Source of the DNA: Gammaproteobacteria bacterium
GTDB lineage: Bacteria > Pseudomonadota > Gammaproteobacteria > Eutrophobiales > Eutrophobiaceae
Direction: 5' to 3'
DNA: 64,000 nt
NCBI GenBank assembly: GCA_965221455.1
Contig: OZ244890.1
Span: forward strand, 415,623 to 479,622
Each line of letters begins with the position of its first letter. The first letter of the stretch is position 1. Below the pieces are notes generated by a model. It ran no database searches, was not told the DNA's origin, and saw only the letters and a list, made by a program, of their open reading frames with translations. Below, one piece after another: positions 23,116 through 60,943 of this stretch. Position numbers and translations under genes: made by a program.

Positions 23116-23127
23116 TATGCAATTCCT

Positions 23128-25967: not shown

Positions 25968-25990
25968 GATTTTCCCCCAACAAAATTATT

Positions 25991-27337: not shown

Positions 27338-27362
27338 TTTTTGATCCTCTATTCTCTTTCTG

Positions 27363-29134: not shown

Positions 29135-29241
29135 AAGCTTTTCCTCAATAAAAAATTAAAAACATTGCTGTATCAGCAAACAGCTACAACGTCCAAACGT
29201 CAGATACCCACCCGAAAAAAATATCGGATGAGCAATTTAAC

Positions 29242-30711: not shown

Positions 30712-30824
30712 TTTTTACCCCTCTCTTAATATATTAAGTTGTCATTAATCTATCGCAATAAAACCGACAGTGGTAATTCATCACTACCTTAAAAAGTCAA
30801 CTGTGACAAATTAATTACTTGTTC

Positions 30825-32168: not shown

Positions 32169-32382
32169 AAGCTAATTGCTCCGAATAAAAAAGGTGGACA
32201 AATTACCAGGCTTTTTTAAAATTTTAGAATAACGATATCTGCATAGTCGATTCTTATGCAGCAAGAATCAATTCATCCGTAGAGATACCTCTGAAGTGAT
32301 AGATTTGGACATCTTGGCCATCGGATTTATGTGAAGTCCTTTACACCATTCACAATCGCACACCTCTTAAACATGTCGGATT

Positions 32383-32418
32383 TTCAGTTTTTTTGTTTTG
32401 ATAAAAAAACTGAAAAAT
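32383..32418. promoter_or_regulatory. perfect 14-bp inverted repeat (ttttcagttttttt-N8-aaaaaaactgaaaa)
   Basis: This is a direct sequence observation. It lies about 215 nt upstream of the oxidoreductase/gmaS operon start and about 135 nt downstream of the neighbouring minus-strand gene. Confidence 0.3.
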
Positions 32419-32551
32419 ATTTCCATCTAAATCAAGTCTATCCGTTTTTTACCCTGGTACGCCGTATCCCGGATACGGCAATCCTTCGCGAAAAGATTTG
32501 CGCACCTGGACGGTATTGCCTAAATAATGAAGCTTTAATATTTTCAGAAGA

Positions 32552-33043
32552 TTATTTGATCTGTCGCAGCAAATAACCACCGTTTTCAAGGTTTTGTCCC
32601 GCAATGTGAAACTTTGCGGAATCAGGCGTAATTATGGTGTCTACCAGTTCAAAATCAATCGTCTCCTGACTGAAATCAACGACTGTATTAATATTTTTTC
32701 TGGCAAATGCTATTACATTTAACTGACCATTTGCCATTAATTGCCTACGCTGTTTCTGAGTCCAGTCCCACCCGAATGGACAATCCAGCACCTTACCTGC
32801 GCTTTGATGATTAATAATTACCCTTGCTTTTTCCCACTCAAATGGTGTCATGTCCGCCAGGTTTATAATTGTACCGGCATTTTTCCGTATACCTTCACTC
32901 AGCATGGAACGCAAAGAAGCGATATCTGTACAGGACTTGTATTGTTTAAAATAGAAAACAGATAACACGATGATACCTGCGATAACCGCAAAAACGACAC
33001 CCGGTTTACCGGGAATGCTACTTAATGCGCGTCTAATTGACAT
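32552..33043 (-). CDS. hypothetical membrane-anchored protein
   Basis: The ORF has a signal-anchor (MSIRRALSSIPGKPGVVFAVIAGIIVLSVFYF) after the likely start at 33043. The ORF finder extended the frame to 33166. Confidence 0.5.
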   Translation of the reverse strand: MSIRRALSSIPGKPGVVFAVIAGIIVLSVFYFKQYKSCTDIASLRSMLSEGIRKNAGTIINLADMTPFEWEKARVIINHQSAGKVLDCPFGWDWTQKQRRQLMANGQLNVIAFARKNINTVVDFSQETIDFELVDTIITPDSAKFHIAGQNLENGGYLLRQIK

Positions 33044-33214
33044 AGTTAATTTAGAAAGAATAATTTTTCCGGGACAATCAGGTACTGACCAGAACTCTAC
33101 AATAACAACTAAAAAACTTTCCCAAGAAAAAATCCCCTGATCACTGATAGTGAACAGGGGATTCATTTACCACTCACTTCACGTCAGCTATGACGTTTTA
33201 GCTTTGTACCAGGC

Positions 33215-33424
33215 TCAACGATCAAGTGCCTTATTGACCTCTGCCTTGCCCTTGATTTCCTTGATTTCAATATTGCATTCATCGGACTCACTCTTGAGTT
33301 GCCATATATGCCAGGCAAGCCAAAATGCGGTACAAAGTATAACCAACAATCCTTCACTGCCCTGAAATGGATAAAGTGCACCCATCTCCGCCAGCTTGGC
33401 AAAACTTTCAACACCATTTGACAT
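33215..33424 (-). CDS. small hypothetical protein (69 aa) downstream of amt
   Basis: It has one hydrophobic helix (LLVILCTAFWLAWHIW). Its position 35 nt after amt suggests co-transcription. Confidence 0.3.
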   Translation of the reverse strand: MSNGVESFAKLAEMGALYPFQGSEGLLVILCTAFWLAWHIWQLKSESDECNIEIKEIKGKAEVNKALDR

Positions 33425-33458
33425 AACAATGTCCTCCTGCTTGAAAAATTAATCTGAT

Positions 33459-34895
33459 TTACAGTAAGCCAACCTTTTTCGCTTCCGCCCGGACAGCAGC
33501 ATTCAGATCGGCAGCAGCGTTTTCATCTTCAATGTCATAATCCAGATCAAGACCCGCTATCTCAATTTCCTTCGGAATGCGCAGCAGACCCATACCGTTC
33601 AGGATCTTTGCAGCGATCAGACCGGGGATGAAACCCAACACAAAGAACATGATGATTGCGCCGGCAAACTGACCTAGCGGATTAATAGTTGACTCCATAA
33701 ACGGTGAAGCCGGATATCCCCAAAGCATGAAACCCGCAACAACGACACCGTAAAAACCGGCGTAACCATGAACAGCAACAGCACCAACGGCATCATCGAT
33801 CTTGAACGTACGTTCTACCCAATAATGCAACTTGTAAATAATACAAACACCAACCGCACCAATAATCATGGATTGAATCGGATGGTAAAGATCATTACCC
33901 GCTGATGCCGCAATGACGCCTGCAAGTCCGCCGGAGTATGTCCAGAAAGGATCGCCTTTGGACATGAAATATCCAGCCATTAAACCACCTGACAATGACA
34001 TCAAGAAAGCAAAGGTAATACCTGATAAAGATGTGGGACTAAGATAGATATTAGTTGCTGTAAAATAACTACCATCAACATCCAGCATATCAGGACCATA
34101 AAAATCAATTATCGGAACATTACATGCCGCATAAAAACCCCAAAAACCGGTATAGATTAGAAACAGACCGATCGTAACCAACCATGGATTTGTCGGTCGA
34201 ATGTCTCGAGGAGTGCCATCCTCTTTAAATTTACCAATACGCGGTCCAAGCACTATTAACACCGCCAAAGCAAAACCACCCGCAATCGCATGGACGACAC
34301 CGGATGCGTAGGCATCATGATAACCCAGCTTGTGAACCATCCATCCGTCCCAATGCCAGCCCCATGCTGCGTCAGTGATCCACAATACTGAACCGATTAA
34401 CACGGCCAATATCCAGAAAGCACCGGAACGAATCCGTTCAATTACGGCACCTGACACGATTGAACCAGTGGTCCATGAGAACAGCAGGAAGGCTGCCCAG
34501 AATACACCGTTAATGCGTGCCCAGAACCCTGTATCATCAACAGACACGCCTTCCTGAAAAGCGGCACCACCCATATGCGTACCCATTAATTCACTCCAGG
34601 GATAGGCATTCACGGCAGTAACCAAACCACCACCTTCTTGTTGCAAACCTGCCATATTCAGGAAAGGGCCATTTGGCAAGGCAAAATATATCCACCAACC
34701 GAACAGAAAAAAAGCGACCGTGATTAACGGTATAAGCATCGTATTTTTCATTAGTGTATGCAGTTGGTTTTTACGTCTCGATACACCGACTTCATACATA
34801 CAGAACCCAACATGGATCAAAAACATCATTACAACTGTGACCCAATAATAGAATTCAGTGAATATGACGACTAATGATGATATTTCACTATCCAT
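33459..34895 (-). CDS. amt: ammonium/methylammonium transporter (Amt/MEP family)
   Basis: The 478-aa protein has 11 TM segments and Amt signatures (VHAIAGGFALAVLIVLGPRIGKF, twin-His region). Confidence 0.85.
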   Translation of the reverse strand: MDSEISSLVVIFTEFYYWVTVVMMFLIHVGFCMYEVGVSRRKNQLHTLMKNTMLIPLITVAFFLFGWWIYFALPNGPFLNMAGLQQEGGGLVTAVNAYPWSELMGTHMGGAAFQEGVSVDDTGFWARINGVFWAAFLLFSWTTGSIVSGAVIERIRSGAFWILAVLIGSVLWITDAAWGWHWDGWMVHKLGYHDAYASGVVHAIAGGFALAVLIVLGPRIGKFKEDGTPRDIRPTNPWLVTIGLFLIYTGFWGFYAACNVPIIDFYGPDMLDVDGSYFTATNIYLSPTSLSGITFAFLMSLSGGLMAGYFMSKGDPFWTYSGGLAGVIAASAGNDLYHPIQSMIIGAVGVCIIYKLHYWVERTFKIDDAVGAVAVHGYAGFYGVVVAGFMLWGYPASPFMESTINPLGQFAGAIIMFFVLGFIPGLIAAKILNGMGLLRIPKEIEIAGLDLDYDIEDENAAADLNAAVRAEAKKVGLL

Positions 34896-35979: not shown

Positions 35980-36843
35980 ATGAATGCAGGTTTATATGGT
36001 TTATTGGCGGCTTTTGGTTGGGGTGGCGCGGATTTCATAGCACGTTTTACCGGTCGCGCTATCGGACATCAACAAGCGTTGCTTGGAATGTTGACCGTTG
36101 GAGCTATTGTAATAAGTCTGATCATTTTCCTGTTCGACATCCCTATCGTATTTACAATGACTGCCTGGTGGTTATTACTTGTAACCGGGATCGGCACCAT
36201 GGTCGCAACACTATTACTTTACCAGGGATTGGCCAGAGGTCCGGTAACAGTCGTTGCGCCTATTGTAGGTAGCTTTCCAATATTCAATATCATGCTCGCC
36301 GTCATTCTCGGCGCTCGCCTGAATAATATTCAATGGATGGCAATATTTGCTGTATTTACCGGCGTATGGCTGGTTGCCCGTGCTTCCTCACACTTTGCAT
36401 CACAGCCTGACTATAATCGACAACACTTACGTCAAACGATAATTATCGCATTGGCCTCTTCATTATTCTTTGGCATTACTATCGCTGCCGCCCAGGCAGC
36501 AAGCCTTGTTTATGGTGAATTGCAAACCGTTTGTATTGCACGCTGGATTAGTTTGCTGGCACTTGCATTGGTATTTATATGGAGAAGGCAGGTGCCTGTT
36601 ATTAATTTAAGTTGCTGGCCATTGATAGGTCTGCAAGGATTTATGGATACAGGTGCCTATGCCGCACTGGCCTGGAGTGCTCAAGCAGAGAATGCCGAGA
36701 TTGCCGTCGTGACTGCTTCCGGATTCAGTATTGTGACTGTTTTGCTGGCAAGCGTTTTTTTAAAAGAAAAAATGAGTTGGATCCAATGGTGTGGTGTTCT
36801 ATTGATCGTTATCGGTGTTATCGTACTTTCAATCTTCGAGTAA
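35980..36843 (+). CDS. EamA/DMT-family transporter
   Basis: The 287-aa protein has 10 TM segments arranged as two EamA-like halves. Confidence 0.75.
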   Translation: MNAGLYGLLAAFGWGGADFIARFTGRAIGHQQALLGMLTVGAIVISLIIFLFDIPIVFTMTAWWLLLVTGIGTMVATLLLYQGLARGPVTVVAPIVGSFPIFNIMLAVILGARLNNIQWMAIFAVFTGVWLVARASSHFASQPDYNRQHLRQTIIIALASSLFFGITIAAAQAASLVYGELQTVCIARWISLLALALVFIWRRQVPVINLSCWPLIGLQGFMDTGAYAALAWSAQAENAEIAVVTASGFSIVTVLLASVFLKEKMSWIQWCGVLLIVIGVIVLSIFE

Positions 36844-37344: not shown

Positions 37345-38652
37345 TTAACAATCGAGCGTGTGTTGTCTTTCCCACTCGGTAAGCTGATGACAGTACTGGT
37401 TCCATTCGACATTTTTCAGCTTGAGGTAGGCATCAATGAGCTCATCGCCCATCGCTTCACGAACGAACTTACTCTTCTCGGTCAAACGAATCGCATCCAG
37501 TAGATTCAACGGTAGTTTTTTGGCACCGCGAACCTTGTCACCTTCGGTATACATATCCAGGTCGCAACGTTTACCGGGATCGACCTTGTTTTTAACACCT
37601 TGCAAACCACAGGCCAGTAAAGCAGCCGGTGCCAGATATGGATTCATCGCGCCATCAGCAAGACGGAATTCAATACGGTTACCTTCCGGGATACGAACCA
37701 TATTGGTTCGGTTATTGCCCCCCCAGGTAATTGTGTTCGGTGCCCAGGTTGCACCGGAAACCGTAACCGGCGCATTAATACGCTTGTAACTGTTTACGGT
37801 CGAATTGAAAATGGAGGTCAAGGCATCAACGTTCTTGATTACACCACCGAGAAAATTGTAGGCAAGTTTGCTCAGGCCCAATTCACCTTTCGCATCCATA
37901 AACATGTTCTTGTTGCCGGTTTTATCCCACAAAGACGCATTTATATGACAGCCATTTCCAGTCAAATTCACAAATGGCTTGGGCATGAAGGTAGCACGCA
38001 GACCGTGATTTTCTGCAATTTGTTTTACCATATATTTGAAGAAAACGTGGCGATCACAGGTTTTCAAAACGTGATCATATTCCCAGTTCATTTCCCACTG
38101 TCCATTGGCATCTTCATGATCATTTTGATAAGCACCCCAACCAAACTCGACCATGGCATCACAAATTTCAGAAATAACATCATAGCGACGCATCAGACAG
38201 CTCTGATCATAACAGGGCTTTTCCTGGGTATCGCGATCATCATAAATATTCGAACCGTCTTCCTTGATAAGGTGAAATTCGCCTTCAACACCGGTTTTGA
38301 AGGTATATCCCATTTTAGCCGCTTTCTTGATCTGCTGCTTCAGGGCAACTCGGGGAGAAGCAGCGATTGCTTTACCGTCCATGTACAGATCACTGGCAAG
38401 CCAACCGACTTCACGCCGCCACGGAAGAATAATCAGACTGTCCGGATCCGGCACGGCAAACATGTCGGCATCAGCCGGGGTTAAATCCAGCCAGGTGGCA
38501 AAACCTGCAAAACCGGCACCATCTTTTTGCATGCCTTTAATCGCGCCAGCCGGAACCAACTTGGAACGCAGAACACCAAACAAATCAACAAAACTGATCA
38601 GAAAATATTTTAAACCCTTGTCTTTTGCAACTTTTGCCAAATCAGTAGCCAT
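37345..38652 (-). CDS. type III glutamine synthetase-like protein (GmaS-like paralog)
   Basis: The 435-aa ORF has a GS catalytic domain (NGCHINASLW, NRTNMVRIPEGNRIEFRLADGAMNPYL). It is the last gene of the second module. Confidence 0.75.
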   Translation of the reverse strand: MATDLAKVAKDKGLKYFLISFVDLFGVLRSKLVPAGAIKGMQKDGAGFAGFATWLDLTPADADMFAVPDPDSLIILPWRREVGWLASDLYMDGKAIAASPRVALKQQIKKAAKMGYTFKTGVEGEFHLIKEDGSNIYDDRDTQEKPCYDQSCLMRRYDVISEICDAMVEFGWGAYQNDHEDANGQWEMNWEYDHVLKTCDRHVFFKYMVKQIAENHGLRATFMPKPFVNLTGNGCHINASLWDKTGNKNMFMDAKGELGLSKLAYNFLGGVIKNVDALTSIFNSTVNSYKRINAPVTVSGATWAPNTITWGGNNRTNMVRIPEGNRIEFRLADGAMNPYLAPAALLACGLQGVKNKVDPGKRCDLDMYTEGDKVRGAKKLPLNLLDAIRLTEKSKFVREAMGDELIDAYLKLKNVEWNQYCHQLTEWERQHTLDC

Positions 38653-38734
38653 TGCTTTGCCCCCTTCTCTATAATATTACCTTCTGCTGATTTATTAATA
38701 GCTGATGTGATAGTCCAATTAACAGATAAATCTG

Positions 38735-40090
38735 TTATTTGTAAGCATCCGCTCCCGGCACCCAATCTGTTCCGGCTAAAGGCACTTTGGCCATTGCTGC
38801 CGCCTCAACCGTTAACGCAACCAGGTCTTCCGGTTCAAGATTATGCAGGTGTGATTTGCCGCAGGCACGTGCTAATGTTTGTGCTTCCAGTGTCATGGTT
38901 TGCAATAAATTTTTAACTCGACGACCACCTAATTCAGGATCAAGTCGTTTTGCCAATTCGGGTTCCTGAGTCGATATTCCCGCAGGACATTGACCTATAT
39001 GGTAAGCATCATAATAGCCTGCCGCTGATCCCAGCTTACGATATTCATCATCATACTCAGGTGAGTTGCAACCCAGGGCATAAAGTGCTGCCATGCCAAT
39101 AGAAACAGCATCGGCACCCAAAGCCATACACTTGGCCACATCGGCGCCATTACGAATACCACCGGAAACAATCAACTGTACCTTACGGTGCATCCCCATT
39201 TCCTGCAATGCTTCAACCGCAATTCTTACCGCAGGTAAAGTGGGGATCCCCACATGTTCTATAAAAATATCCTGAGTTGCGGCGGTACCACCTTGCATAC
39301 CATCAACAACAATTACATCCGCACCCGCCTTACATGCAAGTTGCACATCATAACGGGTACGTGTTGCACCAACCTTTATATAAACAGGTTTTTCCCAATC
39401 TGTTATTTCACGAATTTCACCGATTTTAATTTCCAGATCATCCGGGCCAGTCCAGTCAGGATGACGGCAAGCACTACGTTGATCGATACCCTGCGGCAAG
39501 GTACGCATTTGTGCGACACGATCACTAATCTTATGTCCAAGCAACATACCACCACCGCCTGGCTTGGCACCCTGACCACAAACAATTTCAATGGCGTCGG
39601 CTTTACGCAGATCATCCGGGTTCATGCCATAACGCGAAGGCAACATTTGATAAACAAGTGTTTTGGAAGACTCCCTTTCTTCCGGTGTCATACCACCATC
39701 GCCGGTCGTGGTCGATGTCCCCATTGCAGCGGCACCTTTACCAAGCGCATCCTTTGCTTGTGCCGATAAAGCGCCAAAACTCATACCTGCGATGGTGATG
39801 GGTATATCCAGATGCAAGGGCTTTTTCGCAAAACGGGTACCCAGCGTTACACCGGTATCACATTTTTCACGGTAACCTTCGAGTGGGTAACGCGACATAC
39901 TGGCACCAAGAAACAGCAAATCATCAAAATGTGGTACATGGCGTTTTGCACCACCGCCACGAATACCATAAATGCCTTCTGTTGCAGCACGTTGAATTTC
40001 CCGAATGGTTTGTTTATTCCAGGTATACGATTCCTGTAATACAGACTCTTCATTCATATTGGCTTGCTGTGTAGTGGTTGCATCATTCAT
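38735..40090 (-). CDS. glutamate synthase FMN-binding domain-like protein (MgsC-like paralog)
   Basis: The sequence parallels the mgsC-like gene at 25991 (GIDQRSACRHPDW...LIVSGGIRNGADVAKCMALGADAVSIG). The start at 40090 (MNDATTT) has an RBS gaggaaag. Confidence 0.8.
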   Translation of the reverse strand: MNDATTTQQANMNEESVLQESYTWNKQTIREIQRAATEGIYGIRGGGAKRHVPHFDDLLFLGASMSRYPLEGYREKCDTGVTLGTRFAKKPLHLDIPITIAGMSFGALSAQAKDALGKGAAAMGTSTTTGDGGMTPEERESSKTLVYQMLPSRYGMNPDDLRKADAIEIVCGQGAKPGGGGMLLGHKISDRVAQMRTLPQGIDQRSACRHPDWTGPDDLEIKIGEIREITDWEKPVYIKVGATRTRYDVQLACKAGADVIVVDGMQGGTAATQDIFIEHVGIPTLPAVRIAVEALQEMGMHRKVQLIVSGGIRNGADVAKCMALGADAVSIGMAALYALGCNSPEYDDEYRKLGSAAGYYDAYHIGQCPAGISTQEPELAKRLDPELGGRRVKNLLQTMTLEAQTLARACGKSHLHNLEPEDLVALTVEAAAMAKVPLAGTDWVPGADAYK

Positions 40091-40128
40091 TTTCTTTCCT
40101 CGCCTGACCTCTATCATGACACCTGATT

Positions 40129-40818
40129 TTAATCGTTCTGCAAAACAGCATTGTCGATCCTGAAGTTATACAGGTTTCTCGCCGGACCATAGAGTTTGAA
40201 TTTTTTCGGATCAGCCATAATTGCAGCTTTATCAAGCAATTCCTTTAACTTATCCATTTGTTCTTTTCCCATTACCTTTTCTTCACAATCATGCCCCAGG
40301 CTTTTCACCTTGCCTTGTACATAGATGTGCATCTCAAAGATGGAATCCCCCAAAGCATCACCTGCATCGCCACAGATAACAACATTCCCGGACTGCCCCA
40401 GGAAAGCACACATGTGTCCGACCGAACCGCCGACAACAATATCCACGCCTTTCATGGAAATACCACAACGCGCAGCAGCGTTACCTTCCACAACGATTAA
40501 TCCACCACGACCTGTGGCACCGGTATATTGTGATGAATTACCCTTTACACGCACAACACCAGACATGATATTTTCAGCAAGCCCGGCACCCGCATTACCC
40601 GTAACAGTGATATTCGCATGTTTGTTCATGCCACCAACATAGTGTCCCGCATGACCATCAATCGTAATATCAAGCTCTGCATCAACACCCACCGCAATGT
40701 TATGCTTGCCATTGGGATTTGTTATCTGAAAACCTGACTGACCTTTTTTCCCATCCGCTTTATGTAACAGTGAATTTAGCTCACGAACCTCCTGCTTATC
40801 CAGATCAATTTTACTCAT
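40129..40818 (-). CDS. GXGXG-motif glutamate synthase domain-3-like protein (MgsB-like paralog)
   Basis: The 229-aa ORF contains GGMNKHANITVTGNAGAGLAENIMSGVVRVKGNSSQYTGATGRGGLIVVEGNAAARCG. Confidence 0.8.
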   Translation of the reverse strand: MSKIDLDKQEVRELNSLLHKADGKKGQSGFQITNPNGKHNIAVGVDAELDITIDGHAGHYVGGMNKHANITVTGNAGAGLAENIMSGVVRVKGNSSQYTGATGRGGLIVVEGNAAARCGISMKGVDIVVGGSVGHMCAFLGQSGNVVICGDAGDALGDSIFEMHIYVQGKVKSLGHDCEEKVMGKEQMDKLKELLDKAAIMADPKKFKLYGPARNLYNFRIDNAVLQND

Positions 40819-41101
40819 TATCCCTGGACCTCAGACCGTATTGTTTATTCATGATCACGCCGAGTGCCATCAAAGCCACTTCCAGACGTGAACGTACCCG
40901 TAACTTACGCATTAAATTCTTAACGTGGATTTTTACAGTACCTTCACAAATACCGAGTTCTCCAGCAATCATCTTGTTTGTCATCCCTGTAGTGATCAGT
41001 CTTTGTATTTCCTGCTCTCGTGTAGTCAATGCAAGGACCTTGCCATCACCCGGTTTTTCTTCAGTGCTGTGTTTAATATTAATCAAGGCTGGATTATTCA
41101 T
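40811..41101 (-). CDS. standalone LuxR/GerE-type HTH protein (no receiver domain)
   Basis: The 96-aa protein has an HTH (TTREQEIQRLITTGMTNKMIAGELGICEGTVKIHVKNLMRKLRVRSRLEVALMA) closely resembling the DNA-binding domain of the response regulator at 16395-17048. It is wedged between the mgsA-like and mgsB-like genes with short overlaps. Confidence 0.75.
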   Translation of the reverse strand: MNNPALINIKHSTEEKPGDGKVLALTTREQEIQRLITTGMTNKMIAGELGICEGTVKIHVKNLMRKLRVRSRLEVALMALGVIMNKQYGLRSRDNE

Positions 41102-41107
41102 AAATCA

Positions 41108-42004
41108 TTACCTCTGCCAACTATAGATTGTCGCTGGTTCAGGCTCCCAGATATTTGCATTCTGTACGCCGGGTAAACAGGCCATTGAACGAAATTCAGA
41201 TGCCATTGCAACCCAATCATCTGTTTCCGCAAGAATTGCGGGCTTGGCACCAATCGGATCCCTGACAACGGCAAACCCGTCATACGTACCCACTGCAAAT
41301 GTGTAAAAACCATCCAGGTCTGCAAAACCCGCCTGCAAAGCTTCATCAAGACTTGCTCCATTTTGTAATTTCCATGTCAGATAACCTGCTGCAACTTCAC
41401 TATCGTTATCAGTCTGGAATTCCACACCCTCTCTTTGTAAAGAACGACGTAAACGATTGTGATTGGATAGTGAACCATTATGTACAAGACAGAGATCTTC
41501 CCCGGTTGAAAAAGGATGAGAAGCGGACGTTGTCACTGCGCTTTCGGTTGCCATACGCGTATGTCCCAATGCATGTGTGCCCGACATACCCGCAATGCCA
41601 AATCTATCAATAACGTCTTTTGGTAATCCCTGTTCCTTAAAGATAGTGATGTTGGTTCCTGAACTGGTCATGTACAGATCAGGATGCACATCATGCAACC
41701 AGAGTTGCAGATCTTTTGTATCAGCACTGACCGTCAGCACAGCATGATTACTGTTAAGCTCCAGTTTTGAATTTTCACCAAAGACTTCTTTTAGATCAGA
41801 AGCTAATTTGTCCCATAAATAAACCGGATCGATTGAAAGTACCGTGGTTCGGGTCATACCTTTCTCTACAGCATCACCGTACACAGCTATCCCGGCACTA
41901 TCAGGACCACGCTCGGTCATTTCGACGAGCATTGGTGATAATAAAGCACCCAGTTTATTTTCAAGTTCAGGTGCCTTTATAAAAAGCCCAACAATGCCAC
42001 ACAT
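41108..42004 (-). CDS. class II (Ntn) glutamine amidotransferase (MgsA-like paralog)
   Basis: The start at 42004 gives MCGIVGLF (catalytic Cys2) and is preceded by an RBS gggaggggg. The ORF finder extended the frame to 42022. Confidence 0.8.
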   Translation of the reverse strand: MCGIVGLFIKAPELENKLGALLSPMLVEMTERGPDSAGIAVYGDAVEKGMTRTTVLSIDPVYLWDKLASDLKEVFGENSKLELNSNHAVLTVSADTKDLQLWLHDVHPDLYMTSSGTNITIFKEQGLPKDVIDRFGIAGMSGTHALGHTRMATESAVTTSASHPFSTGEDLCLVHNGSLSNHNRLRRSLQREGVEFQTDNDSEVAAGYLTWKLQNGASLDEALQAGFADLDGFYTFAVGTYDGFAVVRDPIGAKPAILAETDDWVAMASEFRSMACLPGVQNANIWEPEPATIYSWQR

Positions 42005-42316
42005 AACCCCCCTCCCTTGCAAATATATAAATATAATTAGTTACTATAGTATCTCATCAGCTACAGCCAATAAATCCTTTCAATAATATATTATTCCTTA
42101 TATGAATAAATTTACGGACTTAGGTACTAATTTTAACCTGATTTCACGATACATTCGGTAACAGATATACTCGGTTAACGTTGTAAAACATAATACGAAA
42201 AGGGATAACATAATGTCAACTTTTAAGTAATAAAATATTACTATAAAGAATATTTTATTACGCACGAAAGACTTTTTATCGATAATTGAAATTGAATGTT
42301 CTCACCGGTCAGGCCA

Positions 42317-42970
42317 TTAATCATCGTTTCCAGCACGATAAATACAGGCAATCATTCGGATAGGCACTTGTATTAATTCCTCAGGGCCATGCGGCGCGTC
42401 CGAATCAAAAAAAAGTGAATCGCCAGGTAACATCAAGTAGGTATCGTTACCGTGTCGATAAACAACCTCTCCTTCCAACATATAGACGAACTCAATCCCG
42501 TTATGTTGAAATAAAGGAAAAACTTCGGACTCATCAGTTAAAGTGATCAGATAAGGCTCCATAGAGATCAACTTGCCAATATTATGACCCAAAAGTTGAT
42601 ATTGATGACCGGCGCGAGTGCCACGCCGCTCAATCAGTAAACCTTCTCCGGATTTTACAAAGCTGCAATCACGCTGTTCCTCATACTTACGAAACAATGA
42701 AGTCACCGGAACATTCAAGGCGCTGGCTAACGCATAGAGTGTCCCTAACGATGGTGCGGTTACACCTCTTTCAATCTTGGACAACATCCCTTGCGATAAA
42801 CCCGCCTGCTTGGCAAGCTCATCAACTGTCATTTTAAGTTGTACACGGAAAGTACGGATTTGCGAACCGACCGCAATTTCCAGTTGCTTTTCACCTTTAT
42901 CAGCAGTCACTGAATCAGGTAAATTGCTTATCTTCTCATCTGCATATTCAGATCCGGTGTTATTGGTCAT
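42317..42970 (-). CDS. XRE-family HTH plus cupin-domain transcriptional regulator (PuuR-like architecture)
   Basis: An HTH_XRE (MTVDELAKQAGLSQGMLSKIERG) precedes a C-terminal cupin barrel (GIEFVYMLEGEVVYRHGNDTYLMLPGDSLFFDSDAPHG). Confidence 0.75.
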   Translation of the reverse strand: MTNNTGSEYADEKISNLPDSVTADKGEKQLEIAVGSQIRTFRVQLKMTVDELAKQAGLSQGMLSKIERGVTAPSLGTLYALASALNVPVTSLFRKYEEQRDCSFVKSGEGLLIERRGTRAGHQYQLLGHNIGKLISMEPYLITLTDESEVFPLFQHNGIEFVYMLEGEVVYRHGNDTYLMLPGDSLFFDSDAPHGPEELIQVPIRMIACIYRAGNDD

Positions 42971-43082
42971 TCACAAAGCCCTGATAATTATTTACAGTTA
43001 TCATAATAAATATACTGTCATGGTCTTAATCCAGTCTAGTCACTTTTTACCTGAATACTTGTACCTACCTGGAGATATAGGG

Positions 43083-43128
43083 TTTACATTGTATGGCGTT
43101 TACATTGTATGGCGTTTACACTGCATTC
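43083..43128. promoter_or_regulatory. tandem 16-bp direct repeat (tttacattgtatggcg x2 plus a partial third) in a divergent promoter region
   Basis: The repeat is seen directly in the sequence. It lies between the minus-strand XRE-cupin gene (start 42970) and the plus-strand GATase1 gene (start 43156). Confidence 0.45.
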
Positions 43129-43155
43129 TTCATCTTAACAGGTCATGAAAACACT

Positions 43156-43881
43156 ATGAAAGCACTTGTGTTTCAACATATCGATATTGAACACCCCGGA
43201 ATCTTTCGAGACTTTATGCAGGAAGATGATATTGGCTGGGATACTGTTGAACTGGACCAGGGAGAGACTATCCCGGATTTCAGTCATTACGATGCATTGA
43301 TTGTGATGGGAGGACCGATGGATGTTTGGGAGGAAAATAAACATCCCTGGCTAGTCAGGGAAAAGCTCGCTATTCGACAAGCAATTGTTAACTTAAAGTT
43401 ACCTTTCCTGGGCTTTTGTCTTGGGCATCAACTGATGGCTGATGCACTTGGTGGCAAGGTTGAAAAAATGACTCAACCGGAAGTCGGTATTCTGGATATC
43501 GAACTCACTACAGACGGTGAAGCTTCCAGTCTATTTTCAGGCTCACGCAAAAAAATTAAAAGTTTGCAATGGCATGGGGCTGCGGTTACCGAAGCACCAC
43601 CTGACAGTCTTGTTCTTGCACAGTCTCCTGTTTGCGCGATACAAGCACTGCAATATGGTGAATCTGCCTTTAGTATGCAATGTCATATTGAACTGATTGA
43701 TTCCACTGTCTCGGATTGGGGAGGAATACCCGAGTATAAACAATCTCTCGAAAAAACATTGGGACCGGGTTCTTTGGATAAATTAAATAGTGCAGCTGAA
43801 AAATACATGTCCGACTTTAATCAAACAGCCGGATTGATATACAATAATTTTATCGACCAACTGAAAAAACGAACCGCATGA
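43156..43881 (+). CDS. class I glutamine amidotransferase-like protein
   Basis: The GATase1 nucleophile elbow LPFLGFCLGHQL is present. The start is taken as MKALVFQHIDIEHPG; the upstream extension to 43093 runs through the repeats. Confidence 0.7.
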   Translation: MKALVFQHIDIEHPGIFRDFMQEDDIGWDTVELDQGETIPDFSHYDALIVMGGPMDVWEENKHPWLVREKLAIRQAIVNLKLPFLGFCLGHQLMADALGGKVEKMTQPEVGILDIELTTDGEASSLFSGSRKKIKSLQWHGAAVTEAPPDSLVLAQSPVCAIQALQYGESAFSMQCHIELIDSTVSDWGGIPEYKQSLEKTLGPGSLDKLNSAAEKYMSDFNQTAGLIYNNFIDQLKKRTA

Positions 43882-44063
43882 AACCAGTCACGGCAAATTT
43901 AATATTATTTATTGTTATCGTGCTTTGTGGTTATGTCGTCGCAAACAGTACCGGAATATATAAAATTTCAGGTTTTGTTCTGGGTATACTTGCAACTTCA
44001 ACGACTATTTACATCCATTGGAAAAGCAGAAATAAAAATAATATTTAGTCGGCGTGTTTAATA

Positions 44064-44957
44064 TTATACGTGAGCAGCAAGCTGATTTTTATAATATTCC
44101 TTCTGCCGTTTGACTGCGATAACTGTATTACGCATTAAAATTGAAACTGTTACCGGACCTACACCACCCGGTACCGGAGTGATCCAGCCGGCTACCTGAC
44201 TGCAAGACTCATAATCACTATCACCAACAATCCCTGGTTTGCCATCTGGACTTTTTACCTGGTTAATACCAATATCAATCAGTGCCGCGCCGGATCCAAT
44301 AATATCCGCTGTTACCAGGCCCGGTTTTCCAACCGCAACAAATACTGCATCGGCGTGTTTGGAATGTTTCGTCACATCTCGTGTCATGTGATGACATACG
44401 GTTACCGTCGCACCTGCAGCCATTAACATGAATGCGATGGGCTTACCGACAATTTCCGAATGCCCAATGACTGTAACCTCCAAACCTTCAAGTTCAAGAT
44501 TTGTCCTGCGCAAGAGTTCTACTGCGGCAAGTGCAGTACACGGCCCTATGTCCAATTCGTTATAAACGATATTACCAATAGATGCCGGGTGCATGCCTTC
44601 TACATCTTTTAATGGATGAATCGCACTTTGCAGAACCTTGACCGGCAATTTATCCGGCACCGGCCGTTGAAGAATAATACCCGTAATACGTGGATCGGCA
44701 TTGTAGGTAAATATGACTGTTCGTATTTCCTCCAATGAAATATCTTTTGCAAAATGTCGCTCTATAAATTCAATCCCTGTTTTTTCAGCTTTATTTTTCT
44801 GGTTGCGGACATATAAATCCACAGCAGGATTATCCCCGATCTTGATTGAGACCAATCTCGGTGTCCAACCTTCCTTCTTTAAACCAATAACATCGTTAGT
44901 AAGTTCGTCAATAATGTCATTACTAATTGCTTTACCATCGAGAATTTTTGCGACCAT
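44064..44957 (-). CDS. folD: bifunctional methylenetetrahydrofolate dehydrogenase/methenyl-THF cyclohydrolase
   Basis: The 297-aa protein starts MVAKILDGKAIS.. and has the conserved FolD core (VIGHSEIVGKPIAFML, PVPGGVGPVTVSILMRNT). Confidence 0.9.
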   Translation of the reverse strand: MVAKILDGKAISNDIIDELTNDVIGLKKEGWTPRLVSIKIGDNPAVDLYVRNQKNKAEKTGIEFIERHFAKDISLEEIRTVIFTYNADPRITGIILQRPVPDKLPVKVLQSAIHPLKDVEGMHPASIGNIVYNELDIGPCTALAAVELLRRTNLELEGLEVTVIGHSEIVGKPIAFMLMAAGATVTVCHHMTRDVTKHSKHADAVFVAVGKPGLVTADIIGSGAALIDIGINQVKSPDGKPGIVGDSDYESCSQVAGWITPVPGGVGPVTVSILMRNTVIAVKRQKEYYKNQLAAHV

Positions 44958-45128: not shown

Positions 45129-45251
45129 ATGAATATTGTTGTCTGCGTTAAACAAATTCCGGATATTCGCTCTACAATAAAACCGAATGTCCAGCGCGGC
45201 TATATCGAAACAGAACGTTTCCACCGGTTTATCAACCCCGAAGATGAATGA
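45129..45251 (+). pseudogene. N-terminal fragment of ETF beta/FixA (about 40 codons), truncated
   Basis: The fragment translates to MNIVVCVKQIPDIRSTIKPNVQRGYIETERFHRFINPEDE then a stop. This matches the FixA/EtfB N-terminus (MKIVVCIKQVPD...INPYD). The rest of the gene is absent and is replaced by the repeat region. Confidence 0.5.
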
Positions 45252-45690
45252 GCTGTTGCACAGGCATTCTCCTTTCCAGTTTCCTTTGCGGGTGCGGTGA
45301 CTTTCCAGCTTCCTGTGCGTTTATGGCTTTGATCACTGCTTGTTGTCCGGTTCATGGCATACAAATGCAAGATCACTTTCACACGTTCTGCATAGCATTC
45401 GCACACCACCTGCAGCAAATCCATGATGTGTCCTCGTTGTAACCGCAGTCTCCAACGCTGTGCCATCATCATTAGTGCACCCATCGCACTTATATATTTA
45501 TGGGTATGCGTACAGCCGTTTGTGTAGTGAGTGAATCGCCCCTGATTTTGTAGACAGCAACGGTTCAGTCTATATGAGTAAAGGAGGTGTGCATGAATAA
45601 CAAAATCTATAAAGAATTTTCCGCACCAAAAGCGCTCCCCCTGCCAGGGGGAGTCCTCCGCAGGGGGTGGGGGCATATGAGTAAATCATC

Positions 45691-45894
45691 TGAACATCGT
45701 CATTCCCGCGAAAAATATGTCCTCGCAGAAGTTGTGTATTTTTTTGCGTCTTATAGATTCCCGCTTGCGCGGGAATGACGGGGTAGTGGTGCAGGAAGCG
45801 CGGAGCTTGAAAAGCAACCACCCCACCCCTGCGGGGCACCCCTCCTTGACAAGGAGGGGAGTGAGTTAGCCGACAAAGTTGAGTGACAGTAAAA
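45691..45894. repeat. 204-bp direct repeat, copy 1 (contains internal 13-bp inverted repeat cgtcattcccgcg...cgcgggaatgacg and the palindrome cccctccttgacaaggagggg)
   Basis: It is about 95% identical to 46010-46213. Confidence 0.85.
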
Positions 45895-45924
45895 TCGTCA
45901 TTCCCGCGAAAGCGGGGATCCAGA
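45895..45924. repeat. short palindromic element, variant A (tcgtcATTCCCgcgaaagcGGGgATccag)
   Basis: It is a member of the family cgtcatt-stem-aaa-stem'-aatccag. It has the same 5' half as the long inverted repeat inside the 204-bp units. Confidence 0.6.
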
Positions 45925-45940
45925 AAAACGAAGGCCTGGT

Positions 45941-45995
45941 GCCTGCCTTACGCTTTCCTGAGTTTAGTAGTGCACATGGGTGGAAAGAAAAGCCG
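45941..45995. repeat. about 55-bp repeat, copy 1 (gcctgccttacgctttcctgagtttagtagtgcacatgggtggaaagaaaagcc)
   Basis: A second copy at 47412-47477 is about 85% identical. The two copies bracket the degraded IS. Confidence 0.55.
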
Positions 45996-46009
45996 CTTAA
46001 TAAAATGAC

Positions 46010-46213
46010 TGAACATCGTCATTCCCGCGAAAAATATGTCCTCGCAGAAGTTGTGTATTTTTTTGCGTCTTATAGATTCCCGCTTGCGCGGGAATGACGG
46101 GGTAGTGGTGCAGAAAGCGCGGAGCTTGAAAAACAACCACCCCGCCCCTGCGGGGCACCCCTCCTTGACAAGGAGGGGAGTTAAGTAGCTGGCAAAGTTG
46201 AGTGACAGTAAAA
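46010..46213. repeat. 204-bp direct repeat, copy 2
   Basis: It is about 95% identical to 45691-45894, with a few point differences (g/a at three sites and the tail gtgagttagccgac versus gttaagtagctggc). Confidence 0.85.
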
Positions 46214-46500
46214 GCATTTCCCGCCCTAAAAGCTCTCCCCCTGCCAAGGGGGAGTGTAGTGGTCTAATAAATCCGTACCAGGTGATAGGTGATGAAATCA
46301 CATACTCATGGAGGTACGGCTCATGACAAAAGAACGAAAACACTTTACACCTGAGTTTAAACAAGATGCTGCCTTGTCTGGTAGTAGACCAGGACTACAG
46401 CATCAAAGAAGCCTGTCCAGTTGAGCAATTAAGCACGCACTATCGTCAAAGTGACGGCGATGATTGTCAGTAGCCAGCAGGGCTTATCGCAACAGTCACC

Positions 46501-46529
46501 TCGTCATTCCTGCGGAAGCAGGAATCCAG
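46501..46529. repeat. short palindromic element, variant B (tcgtcATTCCTGCggaaGCAGGAATccag)
   Basis: The flanks match variant A, but the stem has compensatory changes (cccgcg/cggg becomes cctgcg/cagg). Confidence 0.6.
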
Positions 46530-46701
46530 GTGCTGATTGCAACTCGTCTGAATTGCTTCGCTAAAGCTCTCCCCCTGCCAAGGGGGAGGGGGTTGCAGGG
46601 GGGAGGGAATGACGACTTACAACATCACCACAAACAATACAGACATTACCGCAACCAGCTTCCAGCATTCCATGTGACCGCCTGAAAGCATCAACCCCTG
46701 C

Positions 46702-46731
46702 CGTCATTGCGAGCAAAGCGAAGCAATCCAG
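46702..46731. repeat. short palindromic element, variant C (cgtcATTGCGAGCaaaGCgAAGCAATccag)
   Basis: The flanks are the same and the stem sequence is a third version. A reverse-orientation copy lies at 46894-46924. Confidence 0.55.
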
Positions 46732-46892
46732 TAAACTTTAAAGATAAGTCAGGATACCTTGAAATATTTGAAGATATGCAAAATGCCATTGCCAGAGAAA
46801 AATAAATTAAAGCTGACTCCCGCAAAAAGAAACCTGCCCTGATTGAAAAACACAATCCGGAATGGAACAATTTATATGAAGATATTGTTTAA

Positions 46893-47345
<453 letters not shown>

Positions 47346-47411
47346 TGAAAACAACCTATCGACTGGTACGGAAATACCGGACCACTTTAAGTACCCCGCA
47401 GGGGGGAGGGG

Positions 47412-47477
47412 GTTGTTAGTGCCTGTGCCCTGCGCTTTCCCGAGTTTAGCCATGCACATGGGTGGCAAGAAAAGCCG
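47412..47477. repeat. about 55-bp repeat, copy 2
   Basis: The sequence gcctgtgccctgcgctttcccgagtttagccatgcacatgggtggcaagaaaagcc is preceded by a gggggagggggttg motif that is also present at 46584. Confidence 0.55.
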
Positions 47478-47510
47478 GTGCAGTGAGCGTCCATGCTGTC
47501 CATGCAGCCA

Positions 47511-50500
47511 CTACTGCAAGAGTGCCTCGATATTCGTCCTGACCGCATTGAACGATGGATTGCCCGGAATGGTATCAAGCAGGCCCACCGCATCACGAAT
47601 ACCAAACAGGTAGCGACCCAGCAAGAGTCCGTCACTCTGGTTGGGATCACCGCCGCTGCCATCCACATCAAGACGACCGCTGGCGAAAGCCCCCGCAATA
47701 TTCGCCGTGACCGCACTGGCCGAGGGACTCCCGGGAATCGTATCAAGCAAGCCCGCCGCATCACGAATACCAAACAGGTAGCGGCCCAGCAAGAGTCCGT
47801 CACTCTGGTTAGGATCACCACCGCTGCCATCGACATCAAGACTTACCGCCGCTATCTCCGTCACCGTCACGGTCACGGTGGCCGCCGTGACGGTACGATA
47901 GGTGGTGTCGGTACTGGTCACCGTATGCGTGAGTCGCACGGTCTCGTCGTCTGTATCAGCGTCTTCCACTCCCGTCACGGTGATGGTTTTGGCGGTATTC
48001 CAGTCGGTGGTGCCAAACATCAGTGAGGTGGGACTCACCGTCACAGCAGCGGCATTGGAATGGGTCACGCTAATCGTCACTGCTTCCGTCGGTGGGGTAT
48101 TCAAGCGCAGCGTATACATGCCAGTCCCGCCACGTTCATGGACTGTCAGCGTCGTGGAACTCACGAACACGCCCGGGCCGTCGTTATCATTCAAGGTCAC
48201 AGCCACGGAGTCTATCGTCACGGCAGCCCCATTGTAGCCAGGGTCCGTACTTGTCGCTGTATGCGTGAGTTGCACGGTCTCGTGGTCTGTATCCGTGTCC
48301 TCAACACTACTCACCGTCACCGTCCGGGCACTGTTCCAGTTGTCTGTGGTAAACGTCAGTGAGGTGGCACTGAGGGTCACTGCAGTGGCATCGGGATTGG
48401 TCACGGTCAGCGTTACCGGCCCTGTCGGCCGGCTGCTCAGCATCAGGGTATAGCTGGTGCTGTCACCCCCTTCGGTGACATTCAGCGCGGTCGGCGACAC
48501 CCGCACACCCGCTACCGCCACCGGGTCGGAGGTCAGGCTATCGCCTCCCGCATTCGGATAACTCGCCATCACGCGCAACCACGTGCCTATCTGTGATTGG
48601 TCTGATGCAATCGTGTACGTGGCGGTATTATTGGTCCCCGGTGCGGCGGTAAACGGTCCCGCCGAGGCGGTCGCTGTCTGCCATTCATGGGTAATGGTGC
48701 CGACATCGGTAGTCGGTGAGGCGTCCGCATCGGTGACCGCGCCCGCTGTCAGCGTGCCGCCTGCTCTGGCAATGCCGGTGATGGGTCCGATGGCACCGCG
48801 ACGGTCAACCTGTACGCTATTGGAGAACAGGGTGTCGTTGAAATCCCCGCCCTGGGTCACCTGCACCCGCAGCCAGTGAGCATGGTCCGCCGCTTGCACC
48901 GTGTAGGTCGCGCTGGTGCCGTTCGTGCTGATATCTGTTGCGTTGCTACAGTCTTGAGTGGTACAGCGTTGCCATTGATGGGCGTTGATATTGACGGTCA
49001 ACGTGGGATGGCTCAGCGCACCGGCGGTCAAGATATCATCGACCCTGGCCGGGGTGTTGGGGGTACTGTCCTGGATGGCACCTAATGTCGCGGGCACCGC
49101 ATAAATATAGTTGTCGGTGGCACTCAGTTCACCGATGACTTGCCTGGTGATGGCTGCGACACTCGCTCCGATATTGCACAGCGGCGAGTTGGCTTGTGCG
49201 GTTTGTTCGGTGTTGGTCGTGGTCCCCGAGCGCACTCTTAAATCACCGCTGGCGGTACATGAACTGTCCAATAAGCGCACCCTGTTGCTGCCGGATGGTC
49301 GGTAAAACACGATTCCCGGTCCCGGGATAGCGGTCCATGAGAGGTTCGGACGGGACAGGTTGGACTTCAGGACTATATTGGTAGGGCCTGTCACGAACAG
49401 TGTTCCGCTATTCGGGGTCTCTCGCCCAGTTGTGATGAATCGAGGGGTTGTAAACGTGACTGTGCCGCCAGTGGTATCAATGTCCGTTAATTGCAGCCGA
49501 CCATCGCTGTTATTGCGGGTGAGTACCACGCTTGTGATGTCATCACTACCGTAGTTTGTCGCATCGGTATGCCCGGCCGGGCCGTTGACGAGATAGTTAT
49601 TCCAGAAGGTCGCACTCGGGCGGGCCTCGGTTTGCCCGTGGTTGGTGATGTCGGTGCCGTAGGCATTGGCACAATGGCCGCCCGTCCCGGCATTACAGGT
49701 GCGTGTCTGGTTCTTGTCGGTGATATTGCCCGCACTCCAGGCGCCCCAGCCGTCGTTGTAGTTTAGAATACCCACTGCCGTAGCCACAGACTGCTTGGTG
49801 ATGTCGTAAGGGGTGGATTGACACAGGGTACGCAGAGCCTGAGAATCTGATATGTTGGGGGTCACGCCGCCTGAGCTGCGTACCCTTGCGTCCCCGGTTC
49901 TACAATGAATCTCCACTATGTTGTCTACCCCAGGGAGAAATATCCGTCCCGGTCCCGGAATAGCGGCGAAGCCCCCGGTAAACGGGTTGTGCCAGTCGTT
50001 GTCGCCCGCATTCCAGGCGGCGAGGAAGTTGGCGAAGGCCGGGAACGCCCCGAGTAGGGTGGTTCGGAAAGGGAACGACAAGTTGAGGGGCCCTGACTGC
50101 CGGTCATACCACACCTTCAGCGTGGTCGGGCTGATAATCTCCGACATGCCTATCTGAGTCCACCCGCCGGTCGGAATCCCGGAATTCGGGTATAGGACCG
50201 GATTGGTGCCTTCCGGGCAGGGGGTGTTCGGGCCGGGAGTGCCGACGACGTTGACACTGCACGTCCGCCGGGTCGTCAGCGTCTCATTATTGATTGTCCC
50301 GGTGTAGGTGTACGATGCCGTATCCGGTACCGGTACGTCTGCGGACATCGGGGCATTGAACGCGGTATTTAGACTGGCTGCGGCAATCTTGTTGGCGTTG
50401 TATGAGTTGGTTATCTCTAGCGGGGTCGAGCAAAAGTTGGTGTTGCCTTCCAGCGTGTCCATCATCCCCGTCTTTATCAGGCTGGTGCCGGAGGTGGCGG

Positions 50501-51092: not shown

Positions 51093-51318
51093 GCCCGCGC
51101 AACGATAAACTCGTGCATCATCATGCAACCCGTGCAATAGCCCGTTCCGCCTCTCGCCGTCCACACAACCCACAATGCCACCCAACTGACACCTCAAACG
51201 CCGCAAAAGACCAAATTGCACACCCAACACATCCGCAGTAAGCTGCGCTTCGTATTCGGTCATAGCAATGTTGCGCCTGGTGGCGGCGCGGTCTGCGCCA
51301 GTGTTGCGGTCTACCGAG

Positions 51319-60734: not shown

Positions 60735-60943
60735 CTTGATATTCCTGCGAAACTTAAATACATTCCTCCCCAAAACCGGATAAATCAAGGATCTGGTAAA
60801 GAAACCGGGTCGACCATTATATATGAATTTACCCTGGCAGAGGCGCTCTTCAGCAGTCTTAATCCGCAGGCGGAAACAAGTTCCATCCCAAAACTCCAGT
60901 GTAATGAGGATGTTATTTATTAGTTGTTGATTAATATAATAAG

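Follow-up and report, generated by a model that had tools for sequence, protein, structure and literature searches.

The window analyzed here, a stretch of 64,000 nucleotides from a gammaproteobacterial contig (GenBank assembly GCA_965221455.1, contig OZ244890.1, positions 415,623 to 479,622), harbors two gene sets that each combine a glutamine synthetase (GS)-like gene with a glutamate synthase (GOGAT)-like trio, split into an N-terminal nucleophile (Ntn) amidotransferase subunit (A), a GXGXG subunit (B), and a flavin mononucleotide (FMN)-binding subunit (C). Our analysis indicates that the second of them, module 2 (region 37345–44957, comprising GS2, A2, B2, and C2), most probably encodes the canonical first steps by which monomethylamine (MMA) enters the N-methylglutamate (NMG) pathway. 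Based on the orthology of GS2, the identities of the three subunits, and the conserved synteny, module 2 was assigned as an mgsABC-gmaS operon, the usual regulator included. We thus regard it as a known operon in a slightly modified form and as no new pathway; only the insertion of a LuxR-type gene and a pair consisting of a class I glutamine amidotransferase (GATase) and a 56-amino-acid (aa) protein go beyond what is known. A previous interpretation made from the letters alone (the sequence-only reading) had described a second GS-like plus split-GOGAT-like module with its own regulators and a class I amidotransferase, and all genes named there were present with strong domain matches, while the open reading frame (ORF) for the 56-aa protein had been overlooked.

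Orthology, residue conservation, and synteny are what the analysis shows; what the enzymes catalyze, which targets the regulators have, and what the amidotransferase acts on are inferred from them. The gamma-glutamylmethylamide synthetase GmaS (GS2) would use ATP to join MMA to the gamma-carboxyl group of glutamate, leading to gamma-glutamylmethylamide (GMA), which MgsA, MgsB, and MgsC together would turn into NMG. MgdABCD, encoded 13 kb away, is the likely consumer of NMG and would release glutamate and methylene-tetrahydrofolate (THF), and the latter may be processed by the neighboring FolD. The XRE-cupin protein is the conserved cognate regulator, probably acting at a dyad by the operon promoter, and the LuxR protein, co-translated with the operon, probably passes the induction of the operon on to promoters elsewhere. 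Module 1 would have a distinct role in methylated-amine catabolism.

The assignment is carried first of all by GS2, which passed the family model TIGR03105 with 645.5 bits (cutoff 469.6), while its counterpart GS1 in module 1 failed with 299.8 bits. The closest solved structure was RhGmaS from Rhodovulum sp. 12E13 (PDB 7CQL; 607 bits, 62% identity), followed by 9QUR, a "glutamate--methylamine ligase" (349 bits). For RhGmaS, the residues binding ATP, glutamate, Mg, and methylamine have been assigned (Wang et al., PMC7948447), and 16 of the 17 functional residues listed there were identical in GS2, with H237 to N as the sole change. The methylamine pocket of RhGmaS (K30', Y147, Q175, D177, E179, E186, and N188) was conserved at seven of seven positions (K31, Y148, Q176, D178, E180, E187, and N189 in GS2), and so were the catalytic residues (Asp, Glu, and Arg), R312 corresponding to R315. 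Alignment with Escherichia coli GlnA, a check that the sequence-only reading had proposed for the GS-like proteins, revealed that the ammonium-site residues are lost in the same manner as in GmaS (Asp50 to Ala49, Ser53 to Ala, and flap Glu327 to Trp303), and that all ligands for metal, ATP, and glutamate are kept. In a neighbor-joining tree, calculated from distances and without bootstrap support, GS2 grouped with RhGmaS and with GlnT from Agrobacterium and Methylobacterium, with 9QUR as sister and GS1 on a separate deep branch. GS2 is a GmaS ortholog, for which ATP-dependent ligation of methylamine is predicted.

The remaining genes of module 2 led to the same assignment. Gene for gene, the products were 55–74% identical to those of the XRE-GlxB-GlxC-GlxD-GlnT cluster on a plasmid of Agrobacterium tumefaciens, so that the earlier claim of a gene composition unmatched by any described pathway had to be dropped. 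A2 and B2 shared 56% and 55% identity with GlxB and GlxC, respectively, C2 was 74% identical to both GlxD and MgsC of Cupriavidus, and the XRE-cupin regulator was 55% identical to the product of the XRE gene upstream of Agrobacterium glxB. The genes glxBCD-glnT have been equated with those for N-methylglutamate synthase (NMGS) and GMA synthetase (GMAS) in the literature (PMC3160333). In a tree whose sample was without archaeal split GOGATs, C2 fell inside the NMGS clade of alpha- and beta-type MgsC. At the three positions of the GOGAT cysteines, C2 reads C-Y-C and lacks the middle Fe-S ligand; according to the alignment-based counts, the same positions read D-W/Y-D in 42 of 44 canonical MgsC proteins and C-Y-C in all five members of the subclade of the window's C2. 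No GltD-like or Fer2 partner was found in or beside module 2, and the proposal that the trio is no bona fide GOGAT was supported by the cysteine pattern and the gene content.

Regarding synteny, module 2 consists of three separate genes for Ntn, GXGXG, and FMN subunits in this order beside gmaS, interrupted by the LuxR gene only. The order XRE-A-B-C-GS was the rule among the 80 genome loci recovered with GS2; it recurred in about 30 loci with the regulator gene and was seen in about 40 other genomes overall, and an XRE homolog upstream of the A subunit gene was detected in about 30 loci, which confirmed the regulator as part of the module. Moreover, XRE-A-B-C-GS directly adjoins mgdABCD in Roseibium, Albimonas, Dongia, and several gammaproteobacterial metagenome-assembled genomes (MAGs). 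The full arrangement Amt-EamA-GS2-C2-B2-A2-XRE / GATase and small ORF / FolD was found again in locus L174, there without the LuxR gene. The search for this synteny in other genomes, as previously suggested, therefore showed XRE-A-B-C-GS to be standard and the GATase gene to be recurrent, but the LuxR gene to be lineage-specific. An EamA transporter gene also neighbors GS2 in L174, L043, L055, L077, and L080.

Upstream of mgsA, a candidate operon promoter (TTGACA-18-TATTAT, 42219–42190, minus strand) matched 11 of 12 consensus positions. As the terminator and promoter scans of the window gave counts at chance level, this promoter alone is cited here. A perfect 13-nt inverted repeat (42227–42239 / 42249–42261) lies just upstream of it, and a related AT-rich dyad with AATAAAATATTC was found at the equivalent spot in L001, a locus of the closest MAG. 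The dyad may serve as an operator. The likely start of mgsA is the ATG at 42004, preceded by a strong Shine-Dalgarno sequence (GGGAGGGG) and yielding a product that begins with MCGIVG and thus has an N-terminal Met-Cys, and that of mgsC is at about 40090, resulting in a protein of 451 aa. The class I GATase ORF reaches back to 43093, but the start at 43156 is likelier, as the resulting 241 aa match the length of the homologs. The coordinates of all features of both modules are summarized in Table 1. No RNA elements turned up when the full window was scanned with Rfam models and for tRNAs.

Table 1. Features of module 2, module 1, and their surroundings in the window
Feature	Position	Strand	Remarks
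EamA-family transporter	35980–36843	+	PF00892; convergent with gmaS
gmaS (GS2)	37345–38652	-	435 aa, alpha/GlnT type; Gln-synt_C E=8e-97, TIGR03105 645 bits
mgsC (C2), FMN/Glu_synthase subunit	38735–40117	-	PF01645 E=3e-89
mgsB (B2), GXGXG subunit	40129–40818	-	229 aa; PF01493
Stand-alone LuxR/GerE helix-turn-helix (HTH) gene	40811–41101	-	96 aa; GerE E=5e-20
mgsA (A2), Ntn amidotransferase subunit	41108–42022	-	GATase_6/7
Candidate operon promoter and inverted repeat	42190–42261	-	TTGACA-18-TATTAT; 13-nt repeat
XRE-HTH and cupin transcription regulator	42317–42970	-	217 aa; HTH_3 and Cupin_2
Three direct repeats, 16-nt period	43076–43126	.	GTTTACATTGTATGGC-like; 5' of amidotransferase start
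Class I glutamine amidotransferase-like (GATase)	43156–43881	+	241 aa; PF00117 E=1e-22
ORF for 56-aa two-helix membrane protein	43878–44048	+	overlaps GATase stop codon
folD, methylene-THF dehydrogenase/cyclohydrolase	44064–44957	-	same position in L174
Module 1	25578–32168	-	order DAO-GS1-A1-B1-C1-p129
DAO oxidoreductase	30825–32168	-	
GS1	29242–30711	-	489 aa; TIGR03105 about 300 bits, below cutoff
A1 (Ntn)	28196–29134	-	
B1 (GXGXG)	27363–28208	-	
C1 (FMN)	25991–27430	-	
p129	25578–25967	-	129 aa; no Pfam/NCBIfam match
tdm-like gene, 3'-end remnant	24619–24776	-	within non-coding gap 24427–25577
mgdABCD, soxBDAG-type N-methylglutamate dehydrogenase	19234–24426	-	soxB TIGR01373 684 bits; SoxD, SoxG identified

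Compared to known systems, module 2 agrees with the glxBCD-glnT / mgsABC-gmaS operon of A. tumefaciens, Methylobacterium, Ruegeria pomeroyi, and SAR11 in its five genes (XRE, A, B, C, and GS) and in their order. Differences were detected in the 96-aa LuxR gene between mgsA and mgsB, in an MgsC with two cysteines where the GOGAT cluster motif has three, in the divergent class I amidotransferase with the 56-aa membrane protein, and in the position of mgdABCD, which in the window is not adjacent but lies 13 kb off, behind the divergent module 1. The beta-proteobacterial GMAS-NMGS cluster (Methyloversatilis/Methylovorus type, represented by 9QUR and the Cupriavidus plasmid locus L172) encodes the same enzymes and an XRE regulator with an MgsC of 74% identity, but there the GS gene comes first and the ligase is just 41–43% identical to GS2; in Cupriavidus the cluster is followed by dmmABCD, whereas the window has no dmmABC homolog. 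The E. coli Puu system follows the same logic with a GS-like gamma-glutamyl ligase (PuuA), a class I amidotransferase fold (PuuD), an XRE-cupin regulator (PuuR), and divergent transcription, although it has no GOGAT-like trio, and the similarities are low (28% identity for PuuA, 22% for PuuR, 25 bits for PuuD). Thus, what had been called a PuuR-like regulator retained that label for its HTH-cupin architecture, but not for its sequence, and a Puu-type assignment was rejected on the same grounds (22% identity to PuuR; NF007408 with 43.8 bits against a cutoff of 211), as was a PuuD identity of the class I GATase (25 bits over a partial match of 42 residues). TmaR, the master regulator of Ruegeria, was also discarded as a counterpart of the XRE-cupin protein, since it is AraC-type. 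With respect to the E. coli GOGAT GltB/GltD, the Ntn, FMN, and GXGXG domains of GltB are encoded by separate genes beside a GS-fold ligase in module 2; unlike GS-GOGAT, however, module 2 has an incomplete [3Fe-4S] cysteine motif, no GltD, and a ligase without the ammonium site. The full cysteine motif of GltB was found in module 1, not in module 2.

The LuxR-type gene was confirmed at its proposed place between the genes for subunits A and B. It begins 6 nt past the mgsA stop codon, shares 8 nt with the start of mgsB, and is translationally coupled to both. The 96-aa product carries a GerE domain only (residues 24–79), and an identification as a NarL/LuxR response regulator was rejected because the receiver domain is missing. 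The insertion was restricted to the window and the closest MAG (L001/L002; GS 95% identical, LuxR proteins of 152–175 aa) and was absent from L004, L005, L174, and the remaining loci, including relatives at 88–90% GS identity. A NarL-type regulator encoded beside mgdD (16395–17048) has an output domain that matched the LuxR protein with 51% identity. We regard the gene as probably a recent, lineage-specific insertion that ties operon expression to other promoters. The NarL-type regulator itself belongs to a set of genes beside mgdD (14751–19178, plus strand) for a HisKA_3 histidine kinase, the response regulator, and a PAS-GGDEF-EAL protein; as a conserved partner of NMG clusters, this two-component system was dismissed, as matches elsewhere were only 27–32% identical.

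The class I GATase revealed the G-F-C-L-G-H nucleophile elbow and an H-x-E pair, with TM1158, a protein of an uncharacterized type, as the best PDB match (82 bits) and a weaker match to the plant gamma-glutamyl peptidase GGP1 (40 bits). Its association with the module, already put forward from the sequence, was found in four arrangements near NMG-pathway genes, namely divergent from the XRE gene (window and L174), beside mgdD in the 95% identical MAG, 3–5 kb beyond gmaS in 13 gammaproteobacterial loci, and downstream of gmaS in L023, which supports a functional link. The 56-aa protein has two predicted membrane helices, and in L174 and L173 the GATase gene is likewise followed by a homolog of it (58 aa and 51 aa, respectively). 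The GATase and the 56-aa membrane protein form a conserved accessory, in which the former is most likely a gamma-glutamyl-amide hydrolase, the most economical guess. Each of the three direct repeats in front of the GATase gene contains TACAnTGTA-like half-palindromes, and they are a possible regulator binding site. In L043 (14634–16424, minus strand), the one locus of the third GATase arrangement that was checked, the GATase homolog has the same orientation as a gamma-glutamylcyclotransferase-like gene of the AIG2/GGACT type, and genes for an EamA transporter and a formate-THF ligase lie between the GATase homolog and gmaS.

Apart from the canonical arrangement, a third one was observed in loci L003, L006, L008, L033, L035, L037–L039, L044, L045, L049, L052, L053, and L056. 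It combines a GS2-type GmaS, an XRE regulator, an Ntn amidotransferase, a fused GXGXG and FMN protein (658 aa, full Cys motif), and a 649-aa Pyr_redox_2 protein resembling GltD (e.g., L037, 3677–11317), and thereby has the look of a GOGAT-style partner of GmaS that is linked to NAD(P)H.

The other gene set of the window (19234–34895) comprises Amt, DAO, GS1, A1-B1-C1, p129, a gap of 1.15 kb, and mgdABCD. Identities between the two modules amounted to 29% for GS, 31% for Ntn, 38% for GXGXG, and 50% for FMN subunits, so that they are old paralogs and not the result of a recent duplication; a pair of near-identical copies above 90%, which would have meant a simple duplication, can be discarded. 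The same internal order had been proposed for both, which applies to A-B-C, but GS comes last in module 2 (A-LuxR-B-C-GS) and first in module 1 (GS-A-B-C). Both are encoded on the minus strand, and module 2, previously described as situated downstream, is in terms of transcription the upstream one of the two. Both modules occur together in SAR324 contigs, where they flank a tdm-like gene, as well as side by side in L023, L042, and L043, and a 1.7-Mb gammaproteobacterial contig (L084) displays the co-directional array DAO-GS1-A1-B1-C1-p128-A2-B2-C2-GS2-DmmD-like. In the closest MAG, the modules are about 125 kb apart; linkage is thus frequent but not obligatory.

GS1 was only about 30% identical to each reference (RhGmaS, 9QUR, GlnA, and PuuA), and its scores against any GS or GmaS in the PDB were 175–202 bits, with GmaS structures scoring no higher than archaeal GS. 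It lacks Asp50 and Glu327 of GlnA and retains all pocket and catalytic residues of RhGmaS, which are kept in 187–188 of 188 members of the GS1 family, with the family-wide substitutions Y174I, N176G, and W189T beside the amine pocket. By its residues and tree position, GS1 is a third deep GS clade of the predicted amine type. The family is 76–90% identical across 80 recovered loci, and for ten of the GS1 homologs, the sequence clusters containing them have members labeled Arenicellales, Candidatus Thioglobus/Pseudothioglobus, Oceanospirillaceae, SAR324, and Rhodospirillaceae; in annotations they appear merely as "glutamine synthetase (family protein)". The C-x5-C-x4-C motif of GltB ligates the [3Fe-4S] cluster in glutamate synthases. 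In C1, all three of these cysteines and a fourth one were present in 56 of 56 distinct sequences (L082–L169), a pattern that suggests an electron-transferring, GOGAT-like enzyme. The gene for p129 follows module 1 in 45 of 77 loci (median identity 75%, up to 84% in loci from genome MAGs), and its product may be an extra subunit; the DAO oxidoreductase gene precedes the module in 21 of the 77.

A Tdm-like gene (about 767 aa, DUF1989 and GCV_T, the architecture of trimethylamine N-oxide (TMAO) demethylase) was found beside module 1 in 42 of the 77 loci, usually accompanied by an OpuAC-type ABC transporter, while homologs of DmmA, DmmB, and DmmC were found neither in these 77 loci nor in the window. 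The gap of 1.15 kb between p129 and mgdABCD in the window (24427–25577) contains no ORF, but tblastn identified the remnant listed in Table 1, which matched the last 28–55 residues of Tdm-like proteins with up to 75% identity and a frame shift. Therefore, the locus formerly had the order GS1-A1-B1-C1-p129-tdm, which is also that of many marine contigs. The nearest annotated GS1 relative in plasmids (54% identity) was located in a cluster of Ruegeria sp. SCSIO 43209 (L171, 7449–16489) together with genes for a cytochrome P450, a second GS, an ABC transporter, a type 1 glutamine amidotransferase, and a 2Fe-2S ferredoxin; this layout presumably resembles the gamma-glutamylation pathway for isopropylamine (Ipu). 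A search of the accessible literature found no description of two such modules or of the GS1 family, and queries for a second gmaS, gmaS in SAR324/Thioglobus, gamma-glutamyl-dimethylamide, and dimethylglutamate gave nothing relevant; a preprint on UBA868, a related group, mentions the generic GMA/NMG pathway only.

Several points weigh against the assignment of module 2 as the canonical front end for MMA. The C2 subclade has two of the three Fe-S-ligand cysteines (C-Y-C), where most canonical MgsC proteins have D-W/Y-D, and module 2 is therefore not a textbook copy. In its nearest relative (L001, GS 95% identical), gmaS is directly followed by a gene absent from the window (11350–12684), which encodes a 444-aa FAD oxidoreductase with 30% identity to PuuB, the gamma-glutamylputrescine oxidase of E. 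coli; this PuuB-like oxidase hints at a direct oxidation of a gamma-glutamyl amide, so that a different downstream route is conceivable. RhGmaS, with Km values of 27 µM for MMA, 58 µM for ethylamine, 8.7 mM for NH4Cl, and 16 mM for dimethylamine (DMA), takes ethylamine nearly as readily as MMA, and the physiological amine of GS2 therefore cannot be fixed from sequence identity. In addition, the mgdABCD genes of the window sit next to module 1 rather than module 2, and the roles proposed for the LuxR protein and the amidotransferase are drawn from gene position alone. As to the dehydrogenase, the claim that module 2 has no cognate mgd genes is true of its immediate flank, but MgdA of the window was 61–65% identical to mgd gene products adjoining module-2-type loci in Roseibium and Albimonas.

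How the two modules relate in function may be answered in different ways. On the basis of gene neighborhood, we tentatively consider a division of labor, in which module 2 would handle MMA and module 1 a gamma-glutamyl dimethylamine route or a reductive, Fe-S-dependent variant, though we hold this to be rather improbable as it stands. The Tdm-like neighbor in 42 of the 77 loci, the tdm remnant in the window, the lack of dmmABC beside module 1, and the smaller GS1 residues near the pocket all speak for it, as does the finding that dmmABC holds the equivalent position beside canonical modules, adjoining them in the Methylobacterium and Cupriavidus plasmids. Since canonical GmaS ligates DMA at a Km of 16 mM, a dedicated DMA paralog is chemically plausible. 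The genes dmmDABC are missing from many marine bacteria carrying tmm, tdm, and gmaS (PMC5520151), and a DMA route of module 1, if true, would fill this missing step. Such a route, or a reductive nitrogen-assimilating variant, would bear on the bottleneck reported for marine DMA degradation and on estimates of methylated-amine turnover.

Alternatively, both modules might be isozymes that convert MMA to NMG and differ in regulation or kinetics, e.g., with module 1 as a high-affinity, reductive, nitrogen-assimilating version using Fe-S and an external reductant and module 2 as a redox-neutral, dissimilatory one. We see this, too, as an unlikely solution, although several points are in its favor. 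The pocket and catalytic residues of RhGmaS kept throughout the GS1 family fit it, as do separate regulator contexts (XRE-cupin in module 2, GntR- or XRE-type for module 1 in other loci); module 1 is often the sole GS/GOGAT-like set within 10 kb of Tdm-like and TMAO-transporter-like genes, and the Fe-S ligands of C1 together with the GltD-like partner in loci of the third arrangement suggest reductive variants of the same chemistry. However, the co-directional array in L084 and the adjacency of the modules in SAR324, L023, L042, and L043 would be unusual for redundancy in small marine genomes. The deep divergence of 29–50% identity, the pocket-flanking changes Y174I, N176G, and W189T in GS1, and the conserved p129 and DAO of module 1, both missing in module 2, also argue against isozymes, which the Fe-S motif fits poorly.

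The sequence-only reading had favored a third solution, with module 1 as the methylamine set and module 2 processing another primary amine or making another N-alkylglutamate. The attachment of mgdABCD and an Amt-type transporter gene to module 1 in the window, the extra regulators and the class I amidotransferase of module 2, and the ready acceptance of ethylamine by RhGmaS-type enzymes are in line with it. We nevertheless judge it very improbable and arrive at the inverse assignment, as it is GS2 that is orthologous to characterized GmaS with the full MMA pocket and GS1 that falls below the TIGR03105 cutoff and outside both characterized GmaS clades, and as XRE-A-B-C-GS is the standard NMG operon, adjoining mgdABCD in many genomes. 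Finally, an ammonium-assimilating GS ("GSIII", GlnT) with a split glutamate synthase, as the historical annotations "type III glutamate--ammonia ligase" and "glutamate synthase" would have it, is hardly tenable for module 2, given the loss of Asp50 and flap Glu327 in GS2, the Km of RhGmaS of 8.7 mM for NH4Cl compared to 27 µM for MMA, the incomplete Fe-S motif of C2, and the lack of a GltD-like or Fer2/ferredoxin gene in or beside the module.

Altogether, module 2 can confidently be annotated as gmaS-mgsABC with an XRE-cupin regulator, and the interest lies in the conserved pairing with an uncharacterized, Fe-S-retaining paralog in catabolic islands for TMAO and trimethylamine (TMA). Surveys of methylamine use that rely on gmaS as a marker may lump the GS1 and GS2 families together or miss one of them.

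Beyond folD, the region 45200–51263 differed from the window average of 45% G+C, with values of 56–59% at about 48–52 kb. It encodes a 1250-aa protein with Thr/Ser-rich repeats and two dockerin-like C-terminal repeats that had no Pfam match, flanked by a transposase fragment (46899–47348), and was probably acquired horizontally. Further on, at 52412–60788 (minus strand), a 2221-aa multidomain synthase with the order KS-AT-ACP repeats-KR-DH is encoded beside a 576-aa enoyl-reductase-like protein, a layout known from polyunsaturated fatty acid (Pfa-type) synthases.

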